Source of the DNA: a virus
Taxonomy: Duplodnaviria > Heunggongvirae > Uroviricota > Caudoviricetes
Direction: 5' to 3' (one strand)
Length of the DNA: 6,607 nucleotides
Virus record (IMG/VR): IMGVR_UViG_2531839662_000008
Location: 1-6,607 of that record
In this document: positions 1 to 6,607 of the stretch, piece after piece
How the letters are laid out: each line of letters starts with the position of its first letter
Numbering within the stretch: the first letter of the stretch is position 1
Notes under the pieces: model-generated
Databases searched by the model: none
The model's input: the letters and a program-made list of their open reading frames with translations, nothing else
What the model was told of the DNA's origin: nothing
Translations under genes and position numbers: made by a program

Positions 1-1
1 A

Positions 2-646
2 GGGCAAATAAATGAGTTGGTGACTCCGTTGCCGTATGTTTCCAGCGTAAGGAATCTAACAACATCTAATTCTGGTGCTGATACAGAGTCAGATGATAAT
101 TATGCTGAAAGAATAAAACTGTCGCCGGAAAAACTGTCTACAGCAGGGCCGGAGGATTCTTATAAATATTGGACAAGAACAGCCAATCAGAATATAAAAG
201 ATGTGAATGTATATACACCATCGCCCGGAACTGTAGAAATCCGTTCTTTGTTAGAGAACGGAGATATACCTTCTGATGAACTATTGGAGCAGATAAATAG
301 CGTTCTCTCTGCAACTAATATTCGACCATTCACAGATAAAGTTCTTGTTAAGAAACCAGAGAGCATTGAATACGATATAATAATTAAATACTGGATTAAC
401 TCATCGGACAAAAACAGAACAACATTAATTCAAAGTGAGGTTGAGAAAGCTATTGATGAGTATAAACAATGGCAACGTTCGGTTATGGGAAGAGATATAA
501 ATCCAGATGAAATTATTCAACGTTTAAAAAATGCCGGGGCTAAAAGATTAGAAATATCAAGTCCTGTATTTACTGTGGTTGGAGAGACGCAGGTCGCCAG
601 AGAGAGAAATGTAAATTGCCAGTATGCGGGGTTAGAGGATGGCTGA
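2..646 (+). CDS. Baseplate assembly protein J-like (P2 gpJ / Mu gp47 family), C-terminal part; 5' end lies outside the window
   Basis: Reading frame is open from the window start (no stop upstream of the listed start at 17). Translation contains the acidic 'ESDDNYAERI' motif typical of baseplate-J proteins. Stop overlaps the start of the next gene (639 ATG), and the next gene is gpI-like, giving the conserved J-I-fibre order. AT-rich codon usage. Confidence 0.7.
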   Translation, partial: GQINELVTPLPYVSSVRNLTTSNSGADTESDDNYAERIKLSPEKLSTAGPEDSYKYWTRTANQNIKDVNVYTPSPGTVEIRSLLENGDIPSDELLEQINSVLSATNIRPFTDKVLVKKPESIEYDIIIKYWINSSDKNRTTLIQSEVEKAIDEYKQWQRSVMGRDINPDEIIQRLKNAGAKRLEISSPVFTVVGETQVARERNVNCQYAGLEDG

Positions 647-1220
647 TATCTTTAATGTTAGCTTGTTGGATGTTTTACCTCCTAACTTAGCTAGAGATCC
701 CAACGTGATAGCTATGTCGAAAGCTATCGATGATGAACTACAAGCAATTAACAATTTAATATATAAGACAGAAATATATAGCGTTGTTGATAACCTGGAT
801 TCAGTTGTTCTCGATCATTTAGCTTGGCAATGGAATGCTGATACATGGAGGGATAGTTGGCCTGTATCGTTAAAGCGTTCTGTTTTTAAATCAATAATAC
901 GAACAAAGCGAATAAAGGGTACAAGGGCAGCGGTTGAAGATGTAGTAAATAGCTTGGGTGGAGAGGTAAACATAACAGAATGGTTTGAAACATCACCACC
1001 TGGCGAACCATATACAGCCTCAATTGTTGCTTCGATTAACTCTTTTGATGGTGCCGTTCCTTCGAAAGAGATGTTGGAAGATACGTTAAGAAGTATCAAG
1101 AGCGCAAAGTCGGCAAGAACATTATTTACATTTTCGCAAGCAGCCAATGTTTCTGGTGGTGTCGGTATTGTTGGTGCTTGTCAGCCTGTGTCTTATGTAC
1201 GATTAATTGGCGAGTGCTAA
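639..1220 (+). CDS. Phage tail protein I-like (P2 gpI family)
   Basis: 193-aa ORF whose start is translationally coupled to the J-like gene. The segment 'LDHLAWQWNADTWRDSWPVSLKRSV...GTRAAVEDVVNSLGGEVNITEWFETSPPGEPYT' matches my recollection of the gpI pattern (W..W, KR.V, G...A, NVTEW). Positioned between the J-like gene and the fibre gene. Confidence 0.7.
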   Translation: MADIFNVSLLDVLPPNLARDPNVIAMSKAIDDELQAINNLIYKTEIYSVVDNLDSVVLDHLAWQWNADTWRDSWPVSLKRSVFKSIIRTKRIKGTRAAVEDVVNSLGGEVNITEWFETSPPGEPYTASIVASINSFDGAVPSKEMLEDTLRSIKSAKSARTLFTFSQAANVSGGVGIVGACQPVSYVRLIGEC

Positions 1221-1250
1221 TTCGCAATTTGTTAATTCAAGGAATTAAGC

Positions 1251-2147
1251 GTGAGTAAATTATTATTTACGATGACTGACGCCGGGCGTCAGGAGCTGGT
1301 TAATGCCAACAAAACAGGAACAAATAAAGTTGAGATTGTTTCTGTTGGTTTAGGTAGTAGATATTATGTCACGTCAACTTCACAAACAAATATAACAAAC
1401 GAAATAAAACGACTTACCACAATAGGTGGCAAAGTTGTTTCCCCTGATACAATTCATGTAACAGCGAAGGATGATAGTAAAGATGAGTATGTTGTCCATA
1501 CAATAGGATTGTATACGAATAAGGGTACGTTGTTTGCTGTATACTCACAAGAACAAGCAATAATAAATAAAGCATCATCTACTATCGCTTTAATATCAAG
1601 TGATATAGCAATTAAAACTCTTGATACTAAAAATATTACATTTGGTGATATTGAGTTTATTAATCCTCCCGCGACCGAAACTGTTGTTGGGGTTGCAAGA
1701 TTTGCCAATGAACAAGAAATTGATGACGGTACAGATGATTCCCTTGCTGTTTCAGCAAAGCGGCTTAAGCAAGCCATTGTGAAACATGAACAATCACGTA
1801 ATCATCCTGATGCAACTTTAACCTCAAAAGGCTTTGTTCAACTTAGCAGCGCCACCAATAGCACGTCTGAAACGCTTGCTGCGACGCCTAAGGCTGTTAA
1901 GGCAGCATATGACCTGGCTAATGGCAAATACACCGCACAGGACGCTACCACAGCGCGAAAAGGGATTGTTCAGCTCAGTAGTGCCACCAACAGCACGTCT
2001 GAAACGCTAGCAGCAACACCAAAGGCTGTTAAGGCAGCGTATGATCTTGCGGCCGGAAAGGCTCCGTCCAATCACACGCATTCGTGGGAGCAGATAACAA
2101 ATGTGCCTGTAGCTTCACTGACTGTAAGGGGAATAACTGGGGTCTGA
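1251..2147 (+). pseudogene. Tail fibre protein, N-terminal part only; 3' end replaced by a Tn3-family inverted repeat at 2139 (the stop at 2145-2147 lies inside the repeat)
   Basis: GTG start at 1251 with AAGGA 6 nt upstream. N-terminal tail-collar/fibre attachment-type domain, then 'HEQSRNHPDATLTSKGFVQLSSATNSTSETLAATPKAVKAAYDLANGKYTAQDATTARKG' fibre repeats (two copies), then 'APSNHTHSWEQITNVP'. The last codons (LTVRGITGV*) are encoded by the junction and the Tn3 repeat GGGGTCTGA, so the native C-terminus is missing. Confidence 0.75.
1827..2050 (+). repeat. Tandem 132-bp (44-codon) phage tail-fibre repeats, about 1.7 copies
   Basis: 'aaaggctttgttcaacttagcagcgccaccaatagcacgtctgaaacg...' at 1827 recurs as 'aaagggattgttcagctcagtagtgccaccaacagcacgtctgaaacg...' at 1959. 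Encoded peptide repeat is KG[FI]VQLSSATNSTSETLAATPKAVKAAYDLA. Confidence 0.85.
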
Positions 2148-2176
2148 CGCTCAGTGGAACGAAAACTCACGTTAAG
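2139..2176 (+). repeat. Tn3-family (Tn1/Tn2/Tn3-type) 38-bp terminal inverted repeat, outer end at 2139
   Basis: Sequence GGGGTCTGACGCTCAGTGGAACGAAAACTCACGTTAAG matches the Tn3 terminal repeat as I recall it. It is not followed by the bla-proximal interior (GGATTTTGGTCATGAG), so this is probably the tnpA-proximal end. Confidence 0.8.
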
Positions 2177-2223
2177 CAACGTTTTCTGCCTCTGACGCCT
2201 CTTTTAATGGTCTCAGATGTCCT
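2139..2223 (-). mobile_element. Remnant of a Tn3-family transposon (terminal repeat plus about 47 bp of interior, probably the 3' end of tnpA), truncated by IS26
   Basis: Terminal repeat at 2139..2176 followed by 47 bp that run straight into the IS26 left repeat at 2224. A minus-strand reading frame terminates at 2167..2169 inside the repeat, as expected for the tnpA end of Tn3-family elements; that frame continues as antisense into IS26, so only the 2177..2223 part could be tnpA-derived. Confidence 0.65.
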
Positions 2224-3043
2224 GGCACTGTTGCAAATAGTCGGTGGTGATAAACTTATCATCCCCTTTTGCTGATGGAGCTGCACATGAACCCATTCAA
2301 AGGCCGGCATTTTCAGCGTGACATCATTCTGTGGGCCGTACGCTGGTACTGCAAATACGGCATCAGTTACCGTGAGCTGCAGGAGATGCTGGCTGAACGC
2401 GGAGTGAATGTCGATCACTCCACGATTTACCGCTGGGCTCAGCGTTATGCGCCTGAAATGGAAAAACGGCTGCGCTGGTACTGGCGTAACCCTTCCGATC
2501 TTTGCCCGTGGCACATGGATGAAACCTACGTGAAGGTCAATGGCCGCTGGGCGTATCTGTACCGGGCCGTCGACAGCCGGGGCCGCACTGTCGATTTTTA
2601 TCTCTCCTCCCGTCGTAACAGCAAAGCTGCATACCGGTTTCTGGGTAAAATCCTCAACAACGTGAAGAAGTGGCAGATCCCGCGATTCATCAACACGGAT
2701 AAAGCGCCCGCCTATGGTCGCGCGCTTGCTCTGCTCAAACGCGAAGGCCGGTGCCCGTCTGACGTTGAACACCGACAGATTAAGTACCGGAACAACGTGA
2801 TTGAATGCGATCATGGCAAACTGAAACGGATAATCGGCGCCACGCTGGGATTTAAATCCATGAAGACGGCTTACGCCACCATCAAAGGTATTGAGGTGAT
2901 GCGTGCACTACGCAAAGGCCAGGCCTCAGCATTTTATTATGGTGATCCCCTGGGCGAAATGCGCCTGGTAAGCAGAGTTTTTGAAATGTAAGGCCTTTGA
3001 ATAAGACAAAAGGCTGCCTCATCGCTAACTTTGCAACAGTGCC
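2224..3043 (+). mobile_element. IS26 (IS6 family), complete 820-bp copy
   Basis: 14-bp terminal inverted repeats GGCACTGTTGCAAA at 2224..2237 and TTTGCAACAGTGCC at 3030..3043. Internal ORF is the canonical Tnp26 sequence (MNPFKGRHFQRDIILWAVRWYCKYGISYRELQEMLAERGVNVDHSTIYRW...). The flanking 8-mers differ (GATGTCCT vs TTATTGCG), so there is no target-site duplication. Confidence 0.95.
2287..2991 (+). CDS. tnp26: IS26 transposase Tnp26 (234 aa)
   Basis: Translation from ATG 2287 begins MNPFKGRHFQRDIILWAVRW and ends ...GEMRLVSRVFEM, the IS26 transposase with its DDE motif. The listed ORF start at 2269 (MLMELH...) is an upstream in-frame extension; the canonical start is 2287. Confidence 0.93.
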   Translation: MNPFKGRHFQRDIILWAVRWYCKYGISYRELQEMLAERGVNVDHSTIYRWAQRYAPEMEKRLRWYWRNPSDLCPWHMDETYVKVNGRWAYLYRAVDSRGRTVDFYLSSRRNSKAAYRFLGKILNNVKKWQIPRFINTDKAPAYGRALALLKREGRCPSDVEHRQIKYRNNVIECDHGKLKRIIGATLGFKSMKTAYATIKGIEVMRALRKGQASAFYYGDPLGEMRLVSRVFEM

Positions 3044-5108
3044 TTATTGCGGAGCTGGTTATTCCTCCTGAAACGGGCGGATTCTGGATCCGGGAAATTG
3101 GTGTATTTGATGAGCACGGCGATTTAATCGCGGTGGGCAATACTGCCGAAAGTTACAAGCCAGCCGTTGCTGAAGGGTCCGGTCGTGCACAAACATTTCG
3201 CACCATTCTGACCGTATCCAGCACGGCCACCGTGGCGCTTACCGTGGATAACACCATGGTGATGGCCACAGTGGATTACGTGGATGACAAACTGAAAGAG
3301 CATGAACAGTCACGACGTCACCCGGACGCCTCGCTGACCGCAAAAGGCTTTGTTCAACTCAGTAGCGCCACTAACAGCGTGTCTGAAACGCAGGCTGCAA
3401 CGCCGAAAGCGGTTAAGGCCGCATATGACCTGGCTAACGGAAAATATACCGCTCAGGACGCCACGACGGCACGAAAAGGCCTTGTCCAGCTCAGTAGCGC
3501 CACCAACAGCACGTCTGAAACGCAGGCTGCAACGCCGAAAGCAGTAAAGGCCGCGTATGACCTTGCTAACGCAAAATATACCGCTCAGGACGCCACGACG
3601 GCACAAAAAGGGATAGTCCAGCTCAGTAGTGCCACCAACAGCACGTCTGAAACACTGGCCGCGACATCGAAAGCGGTTAAGGCGGTAATGGATGAAACGA
3701 ACAAGAAAGCGCCCTTAAACAGTCCTGCGTTGACCGGAACGCCAACAACGCCAACTGCGCGACAGGGAACGAATAATACCCAAATCGCAAGCACGGCTTT
3801 CGTTATGGCTGCGATTGCCGCCCTTGTAGATTCGTCACCTGACGCACTGAATACGCTGAACGAGTTAGCGGCGGCGCTGGGAAACGACCCGAATTTTGCG
3901 ACCACCATGACTAACGCGCTTGCGGGTAAGCAACCGAAAGATGCCACCCTGACGGTGCTGGCCGGGCTTGCTACTGCGGCAGACAAGTTTCCGTATTTTA
4001 CGGGGAATGATGTCGCCAGCCTGGCAACCCTGACAAAAGTCGGGCGGGATATTCTTGCGAAATCGACCGTTGCTGCCGTTATCGAATACCTCGGTTTACA
4101 GGAAACGGTAAACAGGGCTGGTAACGCCGTGCAAAAAAATGGCGATACCTTGTCCGGTGGGCTTACTTTTGAAAACGACTCAATCCTTGCCTGGATTCGA
4201 AATACTGACTGGGCAAAGATTGGTTTTAAAAATGATGCCGATAGCGATACTGATTCATACATGTGGTTTGAAACAGGCGACAACGGCAATGAATATTTCA
4301 AATGGAGAAGCAAACAAAGCACCACAACAAAAGACCTGATGAATCTTAAATGGGATGCTTTGTCTGTTCTTGTTAAAGCCCTTTTCAGCAGTGAAGTAAA
4401 AATATCGACAGTCAATGCACTGAGGATATTTAATTCATCTTTTGGTGCCATTTTTCGCCGTTCTGAAGAATGCCTGCATATCATCCCTACACGAGAGAAT
4501 GAGGGGGAAAATGGCGATATAGGGCCGCTACGCCCCTTTACGCTTAATCTCAGAACTGGTCGCATAAATATGGGGCATGGTCTGGATGTTACAGGAGATA
4601 TAACAACTAACGCATGGGTGTACGCAAACCGCTTGCAATTAACAGCAGCACAGGCATGTGGATTCATATGCGTGACCAGAATGTTATTTTTGGACGTAAT
4701 GCGGTATCCACTGATGGTGCTCAGGCTTTGCTCCGTCAGGACCATGCCGACCGCAAATTTATGATTGGCGGTCTGGGAAATAAGCAATTTGGCATCTACA
4801 TGATTAATAACTCAAGGACAGCCAATGGCACCGATGGTCAGGCGTACATGGACAATAACGGTAACTGGCTTTGCGGTGCGCAAATTATTCCCGGAAATTA
4901 TGGCAATTTTGACTCACGCTATGTGAGAGATGTCCGACTTGGCACACGTGTTGTTCAATTGATGGCGCGTGGAGGGCGTTATGAAATAGCCGGACACGCA
5001 CTTACCGGATTAAGGATTATTGGTGAAGTTGATGGCGATGATGAAGCTATCTTCAGGCCGATACAAAAATACATCAATGGCATATGGTATAACGTCGCAC
5101 AGGTGTAA
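3044..5108 (+). pseudogene. Tail fibre protein (P2 gpH / P1-Mu S type), 5'-truncated by IS26 and apparently frameshifted (-1) near 4630
   Basis: Coding sequence starts mid-gene directly at the IS26 right end ('..IAELVIPPETGGFWIREIGVFDEHGDLIAVGNTAESYKPAVAEGSGR..' is an internal stretch of gpH-type N-terminal domains). Then three fibre repeats, then 'TAFVMAAIAALVDSSPDALNTLNELAAALGNDPNFATTMTNALAGKQPKDATLTVLAGLATAADKFPYFTGN'. Frame 1 is protein-like up to about 4632 (..NAWVYANR), after which only frame 3 is protein-like (LAINSSTGMWIHMRDQNVIFGRNAV...IPGNYGNFDSRYVRDVRLGTRVVQ...RPIQKYINGIWYNVAQV*), implying a 1-nt deletion. The listed ORF's TTG start at 3031 lies inside IS26 and is not a real start. 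Confidence 0.75.
3343..3690 (+). repeat. Tandem 132-bp tail-fibre repeats, about 2.6 copies, homologous to those at 1827..2050
   Basis: Units begin at 3343, 3475 and 3607 ('aaaggctttgttcaactcagtagcgcc', 'aaaggccttgtccagctcagtagcgcc', 'aaagggatagtccagctcagtagtgcc'). A 35-nt stretch 3619..3653 is identical to 1971..2005. Confidence 0.85.
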
Positions 5109-5111
5109 ATT

Positions 5112-5638
5112 ATGCAGCATTTAAAAAATATTAAGTCTGGAAATCCAAAAACAAAAGAACAATATCAGCTAACAAAGAATTTTGATGTTATCTGGTTATG
5201 GTCCGAAGACGGAAAAAACTGGTATGAGGAAGTGAAAAACTTTCAGCCAGACACAATAAAGATGTTTACGATGCAAATAATATTATTGTCGCCATCACCA
5301 AAGATGCCTCCACGCTTAACCCTGAAGGTTATAGCGTCGTTGAGGTTCCTGATATTACAGCTAATCGTCGTGCTGATGATTCCGGTAAGTGGATGTTTAA
5401 GGACGGAGCTGTGGTTAAACGGATTTATACGGCAGACGAGCAACAACAACAGGCCGAATCACAAAAGGCCGCGTTACTTTCCGAAGCAGAAAACGTTATT
5501 CAGCCACTGGAACGCGCTGTCAGGCTGAATATGGCGACGGATGAGGAACGCGCACGACTGGAGTCATGGGAACGCTATAGTGTTCTGGTCAGCCGTGTGG
5601 ATACGGCAAATCCTGAATGGCCACAAAAGCCTGAATAA
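5112..5638 (+). pseudogene. Tail-fibre assembly chaperone (lambda Tfa / P2 gpG / Mu U family) with an apparent 1-nt deletion at about 5264
   Basis: N-terminus [51 protein letters not shown] closely parallels the intact minus-strand paralogue ([54 protein letters not shown]...). After codon 51 the frame becomes junk; shifting by -1 at 5264 gives [65 protein letters not shown]...PEWPQKPE*, which runs to the stop at 5638. ATG at 5112 lies 3 nt after the fibre stop. Confidence 0.75.
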
Positions 5639-5643
5639 AAATT

Positions 5644-5663
5644 AAGGCCCGATAGCGGGCCTT
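5644..5663. terminator. Bidirectional intrinsic-terminator-like hairpin between the convergent chaperone genes
   Basis: Perfect 8-bp stem AAGGCCCG / CGGGCCTT with a 4-nt loop ATAG. It sits in the 28-bp gap between the stop at 5638 (plus) and the stop at 5667..5669 (minus), with an A-rich tract on one side (TAAAAATT) and a T-rich tract on the other (TTGTTTCATT). Confidence 0.6.
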
Positions 5664-5666
5664 GTT

Positions 5667-6200
5667 TCATTCTGGTTGTTCTGGAAACGTTACTGGCAGG
5701 CTGGAGGTGTCTGTGGATTCGACCTTCTGCGCATAGAGCATCCACTCGGTTAATTTTTGTTTATTCTCGTCGGGAATGATACCCAGCCGTAGCTGTGAGT
5801 CCCATAGCTGGGTTTTATCCCTGACAAGTTGCAACAGGCTTTGCTTTTCATTCTCTGCCTGCTGCCTCTGTTCCTCCTCGGTATAAGTTCGCTTTATCAC
5901 TACGCCATCTTTGAACATCCATTTACCCGAAATATCAGCCCGGCGATTTGCTGTAATATCAGGTAATTCAACGACGCTTGCGCCTTCCGGATTAATTGCT
6001 GAAACATCCTTTTCAATACAAATAATAACGCCGTTATGGTCATAGACCATTTTCAAAGTGTCTGGCTGGAAATTCTTTTGTTCCTCATACCAGTTTTTTC
6101 CATCATCTGAATAAAGCCATTTGATGTTAAATTGCTTTGTTAGCTGGTATTGCTCTTTTGTTTTAGGGTTGCCAGCAGTAATGTTTTTTAAGTGCATCAT
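5667..6200 (-). CDS. Tail-fibre assembly chaperone, alternative copy (Tfa' / U'-like), intact
   Basis: 177-aa ORF. N-terminal 50 aa are highly similar to the plus-strand chaperone, and the C-terminal half is divergent. Start ATG lies 2 nt after the stop of the upstream minus-strand fibre-tip ORF (translational coupling). Confidence 0.8.
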   Translation of the reverse strand: MMHLKNITAGNPKTKEQYQLTKQFNIKWLYSDDGKNWYEEQKNFQPDTLKMVYDHNGVIICIEKDVSAINPEGASVVELPDITANRRADISGKWMFKDGVVIKRTYTEEEQRQQAENEKQSLLQLVRDKTQLWDSQLRLGIIPDENKQKLTEWMLYAQKVESTDTSSLPVTFPEQPE

Positions 6201-6202
6201 CG

Positions 6203-6607
6203 TTAAATACTCCCCGCGTTATACCACGTCCCATTAATGCAATACTGAATTGGCCTTGCCTGAGTTGTATCAATTAATTCATCACGGTTTCCGTTAACTG
6301 AACCCGTAACGACATAACCTGACCTGTCAGACCAGCCGGGGCCATTCCATGTCTGAACAGATGACAGACCGCCAAGGCGAATACCTGTAATAAACCTTGA
6401 GTTACATTCTGCCTGCGTGTATGCACCAACATCTCCCGCAGAGGGTTTGCGGGTCGTGGTGTAAAACTCTGACCAGTTAGCCTCAAATCCATAACCATCA
6501 CGCGCTGAACGATAAAAAATACCGCCGTTCCTGTAATTCACGCGGAACTGTACAGCAGGGCAGCTCCCCGTATTCATATTGAAGTGGAGGATTAATGTCG
6601 ATGCGCC
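6203..6607 (-). CDS. Alternative tail-fibre C-terminal (receptor-binding tip) segment, partial; continues past the right edge of the window
   Basis: Minus-strand frame is open to the window edge (…GASTLILHFNMNTGSC…), so the listed Met at 6577 is internal. The C-terminal end '...RPIQYCINGTWYNAGSI*' parallels the plus-strand fibre end 'RPIQKYINGIWYNVAQV*'; the rest is divergent. Immediately followed by its own chaperone. Confidence 0.7.
   Translation of the reverse strand, partial: GASTLILHFNMNTGSCPAVQFRVNYRNGGIFYRSARDGYGFEANWSEFYTTTRKPSAGDVGAYTQAECNSRFITGIRLGGLSSVQTWNGPGWSDRSGYVVTGSVNGNRDELIDTTQARPIQYCINGTWYNAGSI

Follow-up and report, generated by a model that had tools for sequence, protein, structure and literature searches.

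Identification of a G/C-type invertible tail-fibre segment

The sequence between positions 4079 and 6607 of the window (the whole stretch of 6607 nucleotides analysed here) very probably represents the left five-sixths of an invertible tail-fibre segment of the Mu G / P1 C type, ~3.07 kb in full length, within the fibre gene of a P88-like (P2-family) prophage. The window corresponds to one whole draft contig of 6607 bp (AFAB02000093.1, assembly GCA_000194535.2), and it ends inside the invertible segment. Tail-fibre segments inverted by Gin, Cin or Pin have been understood since the 1980s, and the segment described here is an ordinary, near-identical copy of this textbook system and is thus already known. 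For the biology of Mu S/U and S'/U', of Gin and of the 34-bp repeats, summaries are given in PMC4406740 and PMC3575834. The initial annotation had proposed a switch of the Mu G / P1 C type, and this core reading was strengthened by the present analysis: the window, from 4075, 4097 or 4141 to 6607, shows 90-95% DNA identity to the G segments of D108 and SfMu and to the C segments of P1 and P7, and is therefore a direct homologue at the DNA level, beyond mere architectural resemblance. It is this DNA-level identity to annotated systems that settles what the segment is.

The constant 5' part of the fibre gene runs into the 26-bp crossover site at 4079-4104, downstream of which lie two convergent promoterless cassettes, each with a variable fibre tip and its own Caudo_TAP chaperone, with a bidirectional terminator between them. 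On the model of these systems, a Gin-type serine invertase, predicted to have its gene immediately beyond the far end of the segment, would pair the left site with its inverted far-end copy, cut both at the central TC, rotate and religate. Either tip A plus U or tip B plus U' would thereby be expressed, as an in-frame fusion to the constant part, and the resulting phage would bear one of two receptor specificities. The orientation found in the contig is Mu G(+)-like, tip A being currently joined to the constant part.

The left crossover site

The left crossover site (gix/cix-type, 26 bp) was identified on the plus strand at 4079-4104 as TTATCGAATACC-TC-GGTTTACAGGAA, with the central dinucleotide at 4091-4092; in the inverted orientation it reads TTCCTGTAAACCGAGGTTTTAGATAA. 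The site makes up the outer portion of a 34-bp inverted repeat (4079-4112); it is read in frame within the fibre gene, at the boundary of the constant and variable parts (VIEYLGLQETVN). The site differs from the right site of D108 by 2 mismatches, a match that was unique in the window, found in none of 200 shuffles and thus beyond chance expectation. It is identical to the left sites of P88, UMNF18 and pO145, and corresponds to the sites that bound the segment in all the relatives. The record of D108 labels its equivalent as 'related to inverted repeat in Mu', and the alignments with PEC399 change strand across 4075-4116.

A crossover site had instead been expected near 4620-4645. No crossover-like site was detected in 4590-4670, where the best 26-mer carries 11 mismatches to the D108 site, and this candidate was discarded; the place is where a 1-nt deletion breaks the fibre frame. 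A text match to 'gix' in PMC11267873 was likewise rejected as false, being part of a DOI string.

The two fibre-tip and chaperone cassettes

The tail-to-tail arrangement of fibre-tip and chaperone cassettes was confirmed, with the plus-strand tip ending at 5108 and followed by the U-like chaperone at 5112-5638, and the minus-strand U'-like chaperone at 5667-6200 followed by a tip running from 6203 to the end. Tip cassette A, the counterpart of Mu/D108 Sv, spans ~339 codons on the plus strand (4092-5108) and aligns collinearly with D108 S. It carries a 1-nt deletion near 4630 (GCCTT to GCTT) relative to all close relatives, and once the base is restored a single ORF extends from 3046 to 5108. 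The tip appears short, with an apparent start at 4614, because this deletion breaks the frame. The earlier placement of its beginning at 4614 or 4630 was therefore replaced: the true beginning is the crossover site at 4079-4104, and the ORF at 4614-5108 is an out-of-frame tail.

The chaperone for tip A, the Mu U counterpart, occupies 5112-5638 on the plus strand, and its P88 orthologue matches Pfam Caudo_TAP (E=5e-38). The span and the chaperone identity given in the initial annotation hold, but not its description as one ORF, since a 1-nt deletion at 5263 (GATTG to GATG) splits the gene into ORFs 5112-5528 and 5393-5638; the translation is full length once the frameshift is repaired. Both frameshifts, that of tip A and that of U, are peculiar to this contig, and may reflect either real decay or errors of the draft assembly.

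Between the convergent cassettes lies a bidirectional intrinsic terminator hairpin (5643-5664), terminator-like on both strands, and rho-independent terminators are annotated on both strands of D108 at the same place. On the minus strand, the chaperone for tip B (the Mu U' counterpart, 177 aa, 5667-6200) is intact and matches Pfam Caudo_TAP (E=6e-36); the exact U' protein is present on many P2-like prophage contigs. Tip cassette B, the counterpart of Mu S'v, is represented by its 3' end, the last 134 codons (6203-6607, minus strand), as an ORF open to the contig end. This visible part is intact, and the first ~185 codons (LGLQETVNQASGALQKNQ...) would lie beyond the contig end. In P88, tip B, with a Pfam gp37_C match, is a 319-codon cassette that runs from the right crossover site.

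The two tips share a C-terminal motif (RPIQKYINGIWYN vs RPIQYCINGTWYN), beneath which lies a 40-nt inverted repeat with 75% complementarity, and they are 37% identical over the last ~70 aa. They were thought to be alike only at this extreme motif; the motif stands but the restriction does not, since the first ~20 aa (LGLQETVN...), encoded by the inverted repeat, are also common to both. Likewise, the similarity of the chaperones is not confined to the N-terminal 50 aa as had been proposed: the U-like and U'-like proteins are 58% identical and 75% similar over all 177 aa, strongly diverging only in the last ~55 aa.

The right end, the invertase and the two orientations in relatives

Since the window is the whole contig and ends before both, the right site and the invertase are known from relatives. 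Their prediction past the right edge was borne out in every close relative examined (P88, UMNF18, PEC399 and pO145_122715_2). In these four an inverted second site lies ~0.54 kb past the position of the window end (D108 also has one) and is followed by an invertase gene encoding Resolvase (E=1e-50) and HTH_7 domains, with an invariant Ser9. In the P88-type relatives this gene, for a Gin-like serine invertase of 195 aa, starts ~0.62 kb past the window end. The P88 enzyme shares 82% identity with D108 Gin and 73% with Cin, and over its first ~110 nt the P88 gene does not differ from D108 gin. On a Fis-dependent recombinational enhancer, which would be expected in the 5' part of such a gene, this agreement bears only indirectly, as does the putative enhancer annotated in the P7 record at +19 to +86 of cin. 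A Resolvase plus HTH_7 gene adjoins the segment in six annotated relatives and in 9 of 10 contigs whose U' is identical; the remaining contig stops short of that point.

The evidence for both orientations is drawn from these relatives and not from this strain. PEC399 has the same segment flipped relative to P88 and UMNF18. In this comparison two polymorphic bases in the outer half-sites stay with the outer flanks and the inner flanks swap, and thus the exchange took place within the 26-bp site. Among the 10 contigs with an identical U', half (5/10) encode a 764-aa fibre with tip A and half (5/10) a 744-aa fibre with tip B. Both orientations are also common in complete E. coli genomes: the junction of the constant part with tip A was found in 359, and that with tip B in 126. 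That this strain still keeps the invertase and that its segment still flips are inferences, as is the nature of the host-range phenotypes.

These findings bear on a reading in which the two cassettes would be independent convergent fibre genes, without inversion, that resemble Mu G in architecture only. The minus-strand tip is visible only in its 3' part, and a full-length gene would be compatible with the window alone. In relatives of 99% identity, however, tip B is a cassette that begins at the crossover site without a start of its own and with an in-frame stop directly upstream, so that it is not an independent fibre gene, contrary to the outcome named in the initial annotation as a refutation of the switch. 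With the 90-95% DNA identity to the annotated invertible segments of P1/P7 and to the Mu-type homologues (D108, SfMu), and with both orientations occurring by exchange inside the site, this reading is already contradicted, and we regard it as scarcely conceivable.

The left part of the contig

The window starts with genes of the 48-kb phage-plasmid type. The 3' part of a baseplate J gene (17-646, plus strand; Pfam Baseplate_J, E=1.9e-37) is followed on the same strand by a gene for tail protein I (639-1220; Pfam Tail_P2_I, E=3.9e-27) and by the 5' part (~296 codons) of a tail-fibre gene (1251-2137; Pfam Phage_fiber_2 and Phage_tail_fib). Positions 1-2050 are 98% identical to pO145_122715_2, and this fibre gene, which is 98% identical to that of pO145_122715_2 up to 2050, is cut off by the end of a Tn3-family transposon. 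The remnant (2139-2223) consists of the terminal inverted repeat and the first inner bases (GGGGTCTGACGCTCAGTGGAACGAAAACTCACGTTAAG..., which we take to be the Tn3 38-bp IR) and is itself truncated by IS26. The only other contig found with the same left fibre ORF (L008, from another assembly) matches window 1-2215 at 100% identity and stops at that point, 8 nt before IS26.

IS26 (2224-3043, plus strand, 820 bp, DDE_Tnp_IS240 transposase at 2269-2991) joins two different fibre genes, and is bounded by the 14-bp terminal repeats GGCACTGTTGCAAA at 2224-2237 and 3030-3043. Window ~2132-3051 matches many plasmids at 99.5%, where a Tn3-family transposase is annotated beside IS26. No target-site duplication was found for IS26, the flanks CAGATGTCCT and TTATTGCG being different. 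A simple insertion into one fibre gene was rejected on the lack of an 8-bp duplication and on the presence of a homologous fibre stretch on both sides (1826-2035 and 3474-3683). To the right of IS26 the constant part (Sc-like) of a P88-type tail-fibre gene extends over 3044-4091 on the plus strand by comparison with P88; it lacks the first 76 codons and the start, and from nucleotide 230 on it matches the P88 fibre CDS at 99.4% identity. The P88 fibre protein carries Pfam Phage_tail_fib and Phage_fiber_2.

The exact Tn3-IS26-fibre configuration was not found in complete E. coli genomes or plasmids, which gave partial matches only. We consider unlikely the reading in which the join at 2139-3043 is real, and no assembly artefact, with IS26 fusing the baseplate and fibre module of a 48-kb phage-plasmid to the invertible module of a chromosomal P2-like prophage. 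If it were real, IS26-mediated cointegration of a phage-plasmid into the prophage fibre gene may be one example of the route; the product would be a hybrid tail locus, in a strain having two or more G-type segments together with Gin-like and Pin-like invertases, each able to act in trans on the sites of the other.

State of this copy

An intact, expressed constant part together with intact cassettes is not what this contig holds: 76 codons of the fibre gene are replaced by IS26, and tip A and U carry deletions. As assembled, the segment cannot yield a fibre in either orientation. The host-range switch is probably not productive in this copy, because the constant part, abutted by IS26, is without its first 76 codons.

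These defects raise the question of whether the segment, although of the same origin, is a dead relic, that is, a decaying remnant in a defective prophage that makes no fibres and no switch, its cassettes merely inherited. This has a substantial chance of being correct, somewhat short of even. IS26 removes not only the first 76 codons but also the upstream signals, and does so without target-site duplication; the two frameshifts are found in no other copy; and the adjacent left-hand fibre gene is truncated as well, by the Tn3-family end. U' and what is visible of tip B, however, are intact, and draft assemblies typically contain errors of both kinds, losses of single bases and joins across a repeat such as this one of 820 bp. 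Besides the two single-base deletions, the contig differs from PEC399 by 5 substitutions in 2.5 kb, and any decay must therefore be very recent. A defective prophage might also have its cassettes kept for the host, with inverted fibre-like proteins blocking adsorption of other phages. A published precedent exists for e14, PinQ and StfE2, inversion of the e14 P segment by PinQ being reported to have this effect (PMC12529663), and the prophage here looks defective. Nothing in the window bears on such a role, however; with neither start nor promoter in the constant part, a fusion protein would be expected from neither orientation, and the nearest relatives, P88 among them, are P2-like phages that are complete and inducible (PMC5285337). 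We judge this host-benefit explanation to be very improbable.

Little in this segment is new, and the practical value of the analysis lies in annotation. The tip ORF and the chaperone should be recorded as frameshifted parts of a G-type segment with its crossover site at 4079-4104, and the contig should carry a flag that it ends within an invertible segment and that IS26 joins two different fibre genes in it.

Comparison with known systems

One module of ~3 kb is widely common to P2-like, Mu-like and P1-like phages and to 48-kb phage-plasmids. The G segments of Mu, D108 and SfMu have the same order and orientation, Sc-gix-Sv, U, terminator, U', S'v, gix and gin, and the 34-bp inverted repeat whose outer portion is the site in the window is Mu-like. 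In contrast to Mu, P2-like sequence (P88 type) makes up the constant part and the remaining phage. DNA identity is 95.4% to D108 G over window 4079-4380 and 4625-6607, and 90.6% to SfMu G. The D108 record annotates S, U, U', S', the flanking inverted repeats and gin. The left sites of the window and D108 differ at 3 of 26 positions. The stretch of tip A at 4381-4624 is unmatched to D108 by megablast; the module is therefore mosaic.

The C segments of P7 and P1 are 93.1% and 92.4% identical in DNA, respectively, over window 4097/4141-6607, with homologous tips and chaperones, and in the P1/P7 records the match is annotated as an invertible host-range segment with the invertase Cin, the same serine-invertase mechanism. 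The P7 variable parts are longer (annotated Sv' 1345 bp and Sv 1567 bp, vs ~1.0 kb in the window), and the P7 site TTATCCAATACCTTGGTTTAAGAGAA differs from that of the window at 5 of 26 positions.

The 48-kb phage-plasmids (pO145_122715_2, with pinE, and Yersinia phage vB_YpM_39) carry the same module with 93.6% identity over window 3337-6607, located downstream of baseplate genes like those forming the left part of the window. Their invertase is Pin-like, 55% identical to the Gin-like enzyme of P88, and their right site is TTCGCAAAAACCTCGGTTTGCAGGAA. The segment of the window is nearer to the P88 type than to this phage-plasmid type. Escherichia phage P88 (Xuanwuvirus, Peduoviridae) and the P88-like E. 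coli prophages UMNF18 and PEC399 are 99.4-99.7% identical over window 3041/4075-6607 (PEC399 99.7%, P88 99.4%). A DNA invertase is annotated in the GenBank record of P88, whereas the P88 paper (PMC5285337) contains no word beginning with 'invert' and uses 'recombinase' only for the lambda Red system. The P88-like copies have the same constant part, left site and cassettes as the window; their fibre gene, tip A and U are intact, whereas the window carries IS26 at codon 76 and two 1-nt deletions.

Crossover site and opposed fibre-tip cassettes

The 26-bp crossover site, TTATCGAATACC-TC-GGTTTACAGGAA, was identified at positions 4079-4104 as the sole match in the window, with 2 mismatches, to the site flanking the G segment of the Mu-type phage D108 (0 shuffles matched). 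This sequence is identical to the left sites of P2-like phage P88, of E. coli UMNF18, which carries a P88-like prophage, and of the phage-plasmid pO145_122715_2, and is translated in frame as VIEYLGLQETVN inside the fibre gene. The site and the 8 bases that follow make up a 34-bp repeat unit, the equivalent of which in D108 is annotated as 'related to inverted repeat in Mu'. The initial annotation had placed the site at 4620-4645, where the best sequence carries 11 mismatches; a frameshift sits in that region, and led to the reading of the plus-strand fibre tip (tip A) as an ORF of 160 codons starting at 4614 or 4630. Near 4630 the window reads GCTT where all close relatives read GCCTT and, once the missing base is put back, a single frame runs from 3046 to 5108.

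The tail-to-tail arrangement noticed at the outset is real, two cassettes of fibre tip plus Caudo_TAP chaperone being located on opposite strands. On the plus strand, tip A ends at 5108 and is followed by its chaperone (5112-5638), while the minus strand carries tip B (6203-6607, its frame open to the contig end) and its chaperone U' (5667-6200); the hairpin between the cassettes (5643-5664) scores as a terminator on both strands. The two chaperones, earlier thought to be alike only in the N-terminal 50 aa, are 58% identical over the full length, strong divergence being confined to the last ~55 residues. As to the tips, the similarity noted at the C-terminus was found to cover the last ~70 residues (37% identity), but it is not the only one, because the first ~20 residues are shared as well.

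Invertase and both orientations in relatives

The second site and the invertase, predicted to lie beyond the right edge of the window, are both present in the relative P88: the second site, inverted, corresponds to about window 7148-7173, and a 195-aa gene begins at what would be about 7228. The protein contains Resolvase (E=1e-50) and HTH_7 domains, retains the catalytic Ser9, and shares 82% identity with D108 Gin and 73% with P7 Cin. Over its first ~110 nt the gene matches D108 gin exactly, and in P7 a putative recombinational enhancer is annotated in the matching part of cin. The tip B cassette of P88 is 319 codons long and begins at the site without a start codon, an in-frame stop lying immediately beyond the site. 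Its expression therefore requires fusion to the constant part of the fibre gene; the minus-strand tip is not an independent full-length fibre gene.

In the P88-like prophage of E. coli PEC399, the segment is 99.7% identical but in the opposite orientation with respect to the constant part and the invertase. Two positions (G/T and T/A) distinguish one outer half-site from the other, and the variants stay with their outer flanks in P88 and PEC399; the inner flanks (…acggtaaaCAGGGCTGG vs …acggtaaaTCAGGCTTC) are swapped between the two, placing the exchange inside the site, as cleavage at the central dinucleotide would predict. Among ten contigs encoding exactly the U' protein of the window, the fibre ends with tip A in five (764 aa) and with tip B in five (744 aa), and a 195-aa Resolvase plus HTH_7 gene adjoins the segment in nine, the tenth contig ending before that point. 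Within 5426 complete E. coli genomes, the junction of the constant part is intact with tip A in 359 and with tip B in 126.

The exact U' protein is listed in 156 collection blocks, for 80 of which the longest carrying contig is below 5 kb; in 62 of these 80 it measures 2-5 kb, matching the segment itself in length, which is what short-read assemblers would give if the sequenced culture held both orientations. In the 48-kb phage-plasmids (pO145_122715_2, L005 8110-8754), the module is partnered with a Pin-like invertase that shares only 55% identity with the Gin-like enzyme of P88, and the right site of pO145_122715_2 is diverged (TTCGCAAAAACCTCGGTTTGCAGGAA). The invertible module is common to P2-like, Mu-like, P1-like and phage-plasmid backbones.

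State of the AFAB02000093.1 copy and the IS26 join

The window is the complete 6607-bp draft contig AFAB02000093.1 (assembly GCA_000194535.2), its right end falling inside tip B. From the left, it carries the 3' part of the baseplate J gene (17-646), the tail protein I gene (639-1220), the first ~296 codons of a first tail-fibre gene (1251-2137), a Tn3-family terminal remnant of ~85 bp (about 2139-2223) adjoining a complete IS26 (2224-3043), and, from 3044 onward, a second tail-fibre gene that begins at its own codon 77 and continues into the invertible-segment region. In addition to the frameshift near 4630, the plus-strand chaperone has lost 1 nt at 5263 (GATTG to GATG), which breaks its frame. 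Both single-base deletions are private to AFAB02000093.1 among the relatives aligning at each position, and could be sequencing errors of the old draft assembly. As assembled, the switch would be unable to function productively, because the first 76 codons of the constant part and the region upstream of them are missing, and frameshifts interrupt both tip A and its chaperone. Just five substitutions in 2.5 kb separate the remainder of the segment from PEC399, so that the damage either arose very recently or is in part a draft-assembly artefact.

Window 1-2050 is 98% identical to the phage-plasmid pO145_122715_2, and window 3041-6607 is 99.4% identical to P88. Since homologous fibre repeats (1826-2035 and 3474-3683, 83% identical) lie on either side of IS26 and the two sides have different closest relatives, the fibre sequences to its left (1251-2137) and right (3044-4091) each represent the 5' part of a different fibre gene. 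Either IS26 mediated a true rearrangement, giving a hybrid, or the join is a chimeric one made in assembly through a repeat. The 8-10 bp flanks of IS26 are unlike each other, and therefore there is no target-site duplication. The Tn3-end/IS26 junction is frequent on resistance plasmids, at 99.5% identity. The fibre/Tn3-end junction was seen independently, because a 45-kb contig of another assembly (GCA_002516985.1; L008 10001-10965) is 100% identical to window 1-2215, stopping 8 nt short of IS26. Pending read-level confirmation, the Tn3-remnant/IS26 join of a phage-plasmid fibre to a P2-like prophage fibre is the sole mildly unusual aspect of the contig.

The constant part includes tandem Phage_fiber_2 units at 3324-3683 (3324-3551 vs 3456-3683, 87% identical) encoding the recurring motif KGxVQLSSATNSTSETxAATPKAVKAAYDLA. 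Substitutions relative to P88 are concentrated at 3411-3471, within these units, and this clustering suggests exchange between repeats.

Comparison with known invertible segments

From the site rightwards, the window is 95.4% identical to the D108 G segment, 90.6% to SfMu, 93.1% and 92.4% to the C segments of P7 and P1, respectively, and 93-95% to D6, RCS47 and PhiR68_1; the P1 and P7 records explicitly annotate the invertible segment, its invertase and the crossover sites. Alignment with D108 is collinear in the order S-U-U'-S', and therefore tip A with its chaperone is the counterpart of the G(+) set of Mu, and tip B with its chaperone that of the G(-) set. Megablast gave no D108 match for the middle of tip A (4381-4624), both flanks of which are 93-96% identical, indicating a mosaic tip even in what is nominally the 'same' cassette.

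The mechanism follows that established for Mu, in which Gin binds the two inverted sites and is activated by Fis, cleavage of both duplexes leaves a phosphoserine link at Ser9, and the ends are religated after a 180-degree rotation of the subunits. The orientation sets whether S plus U or S' plus U' is produced, and thereby to which hosts the phage is able to adsorb (PMC3575834; PMC4406740). The AFAB02000093.1 contig itself carries the site, the cassettes and the homology; for this strain we infer the invertase, the switching and two receptor specificities. The proposal of an invertible segment of the Mu G or P1 C type is supported by homology, the site, the invertase of the relatives and the occurrence of both orientations. 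The system is already known; corrected here are the position of the site, how long tip A really is, the presence of two frameshifts and how far the similarity of the chaperones extends.
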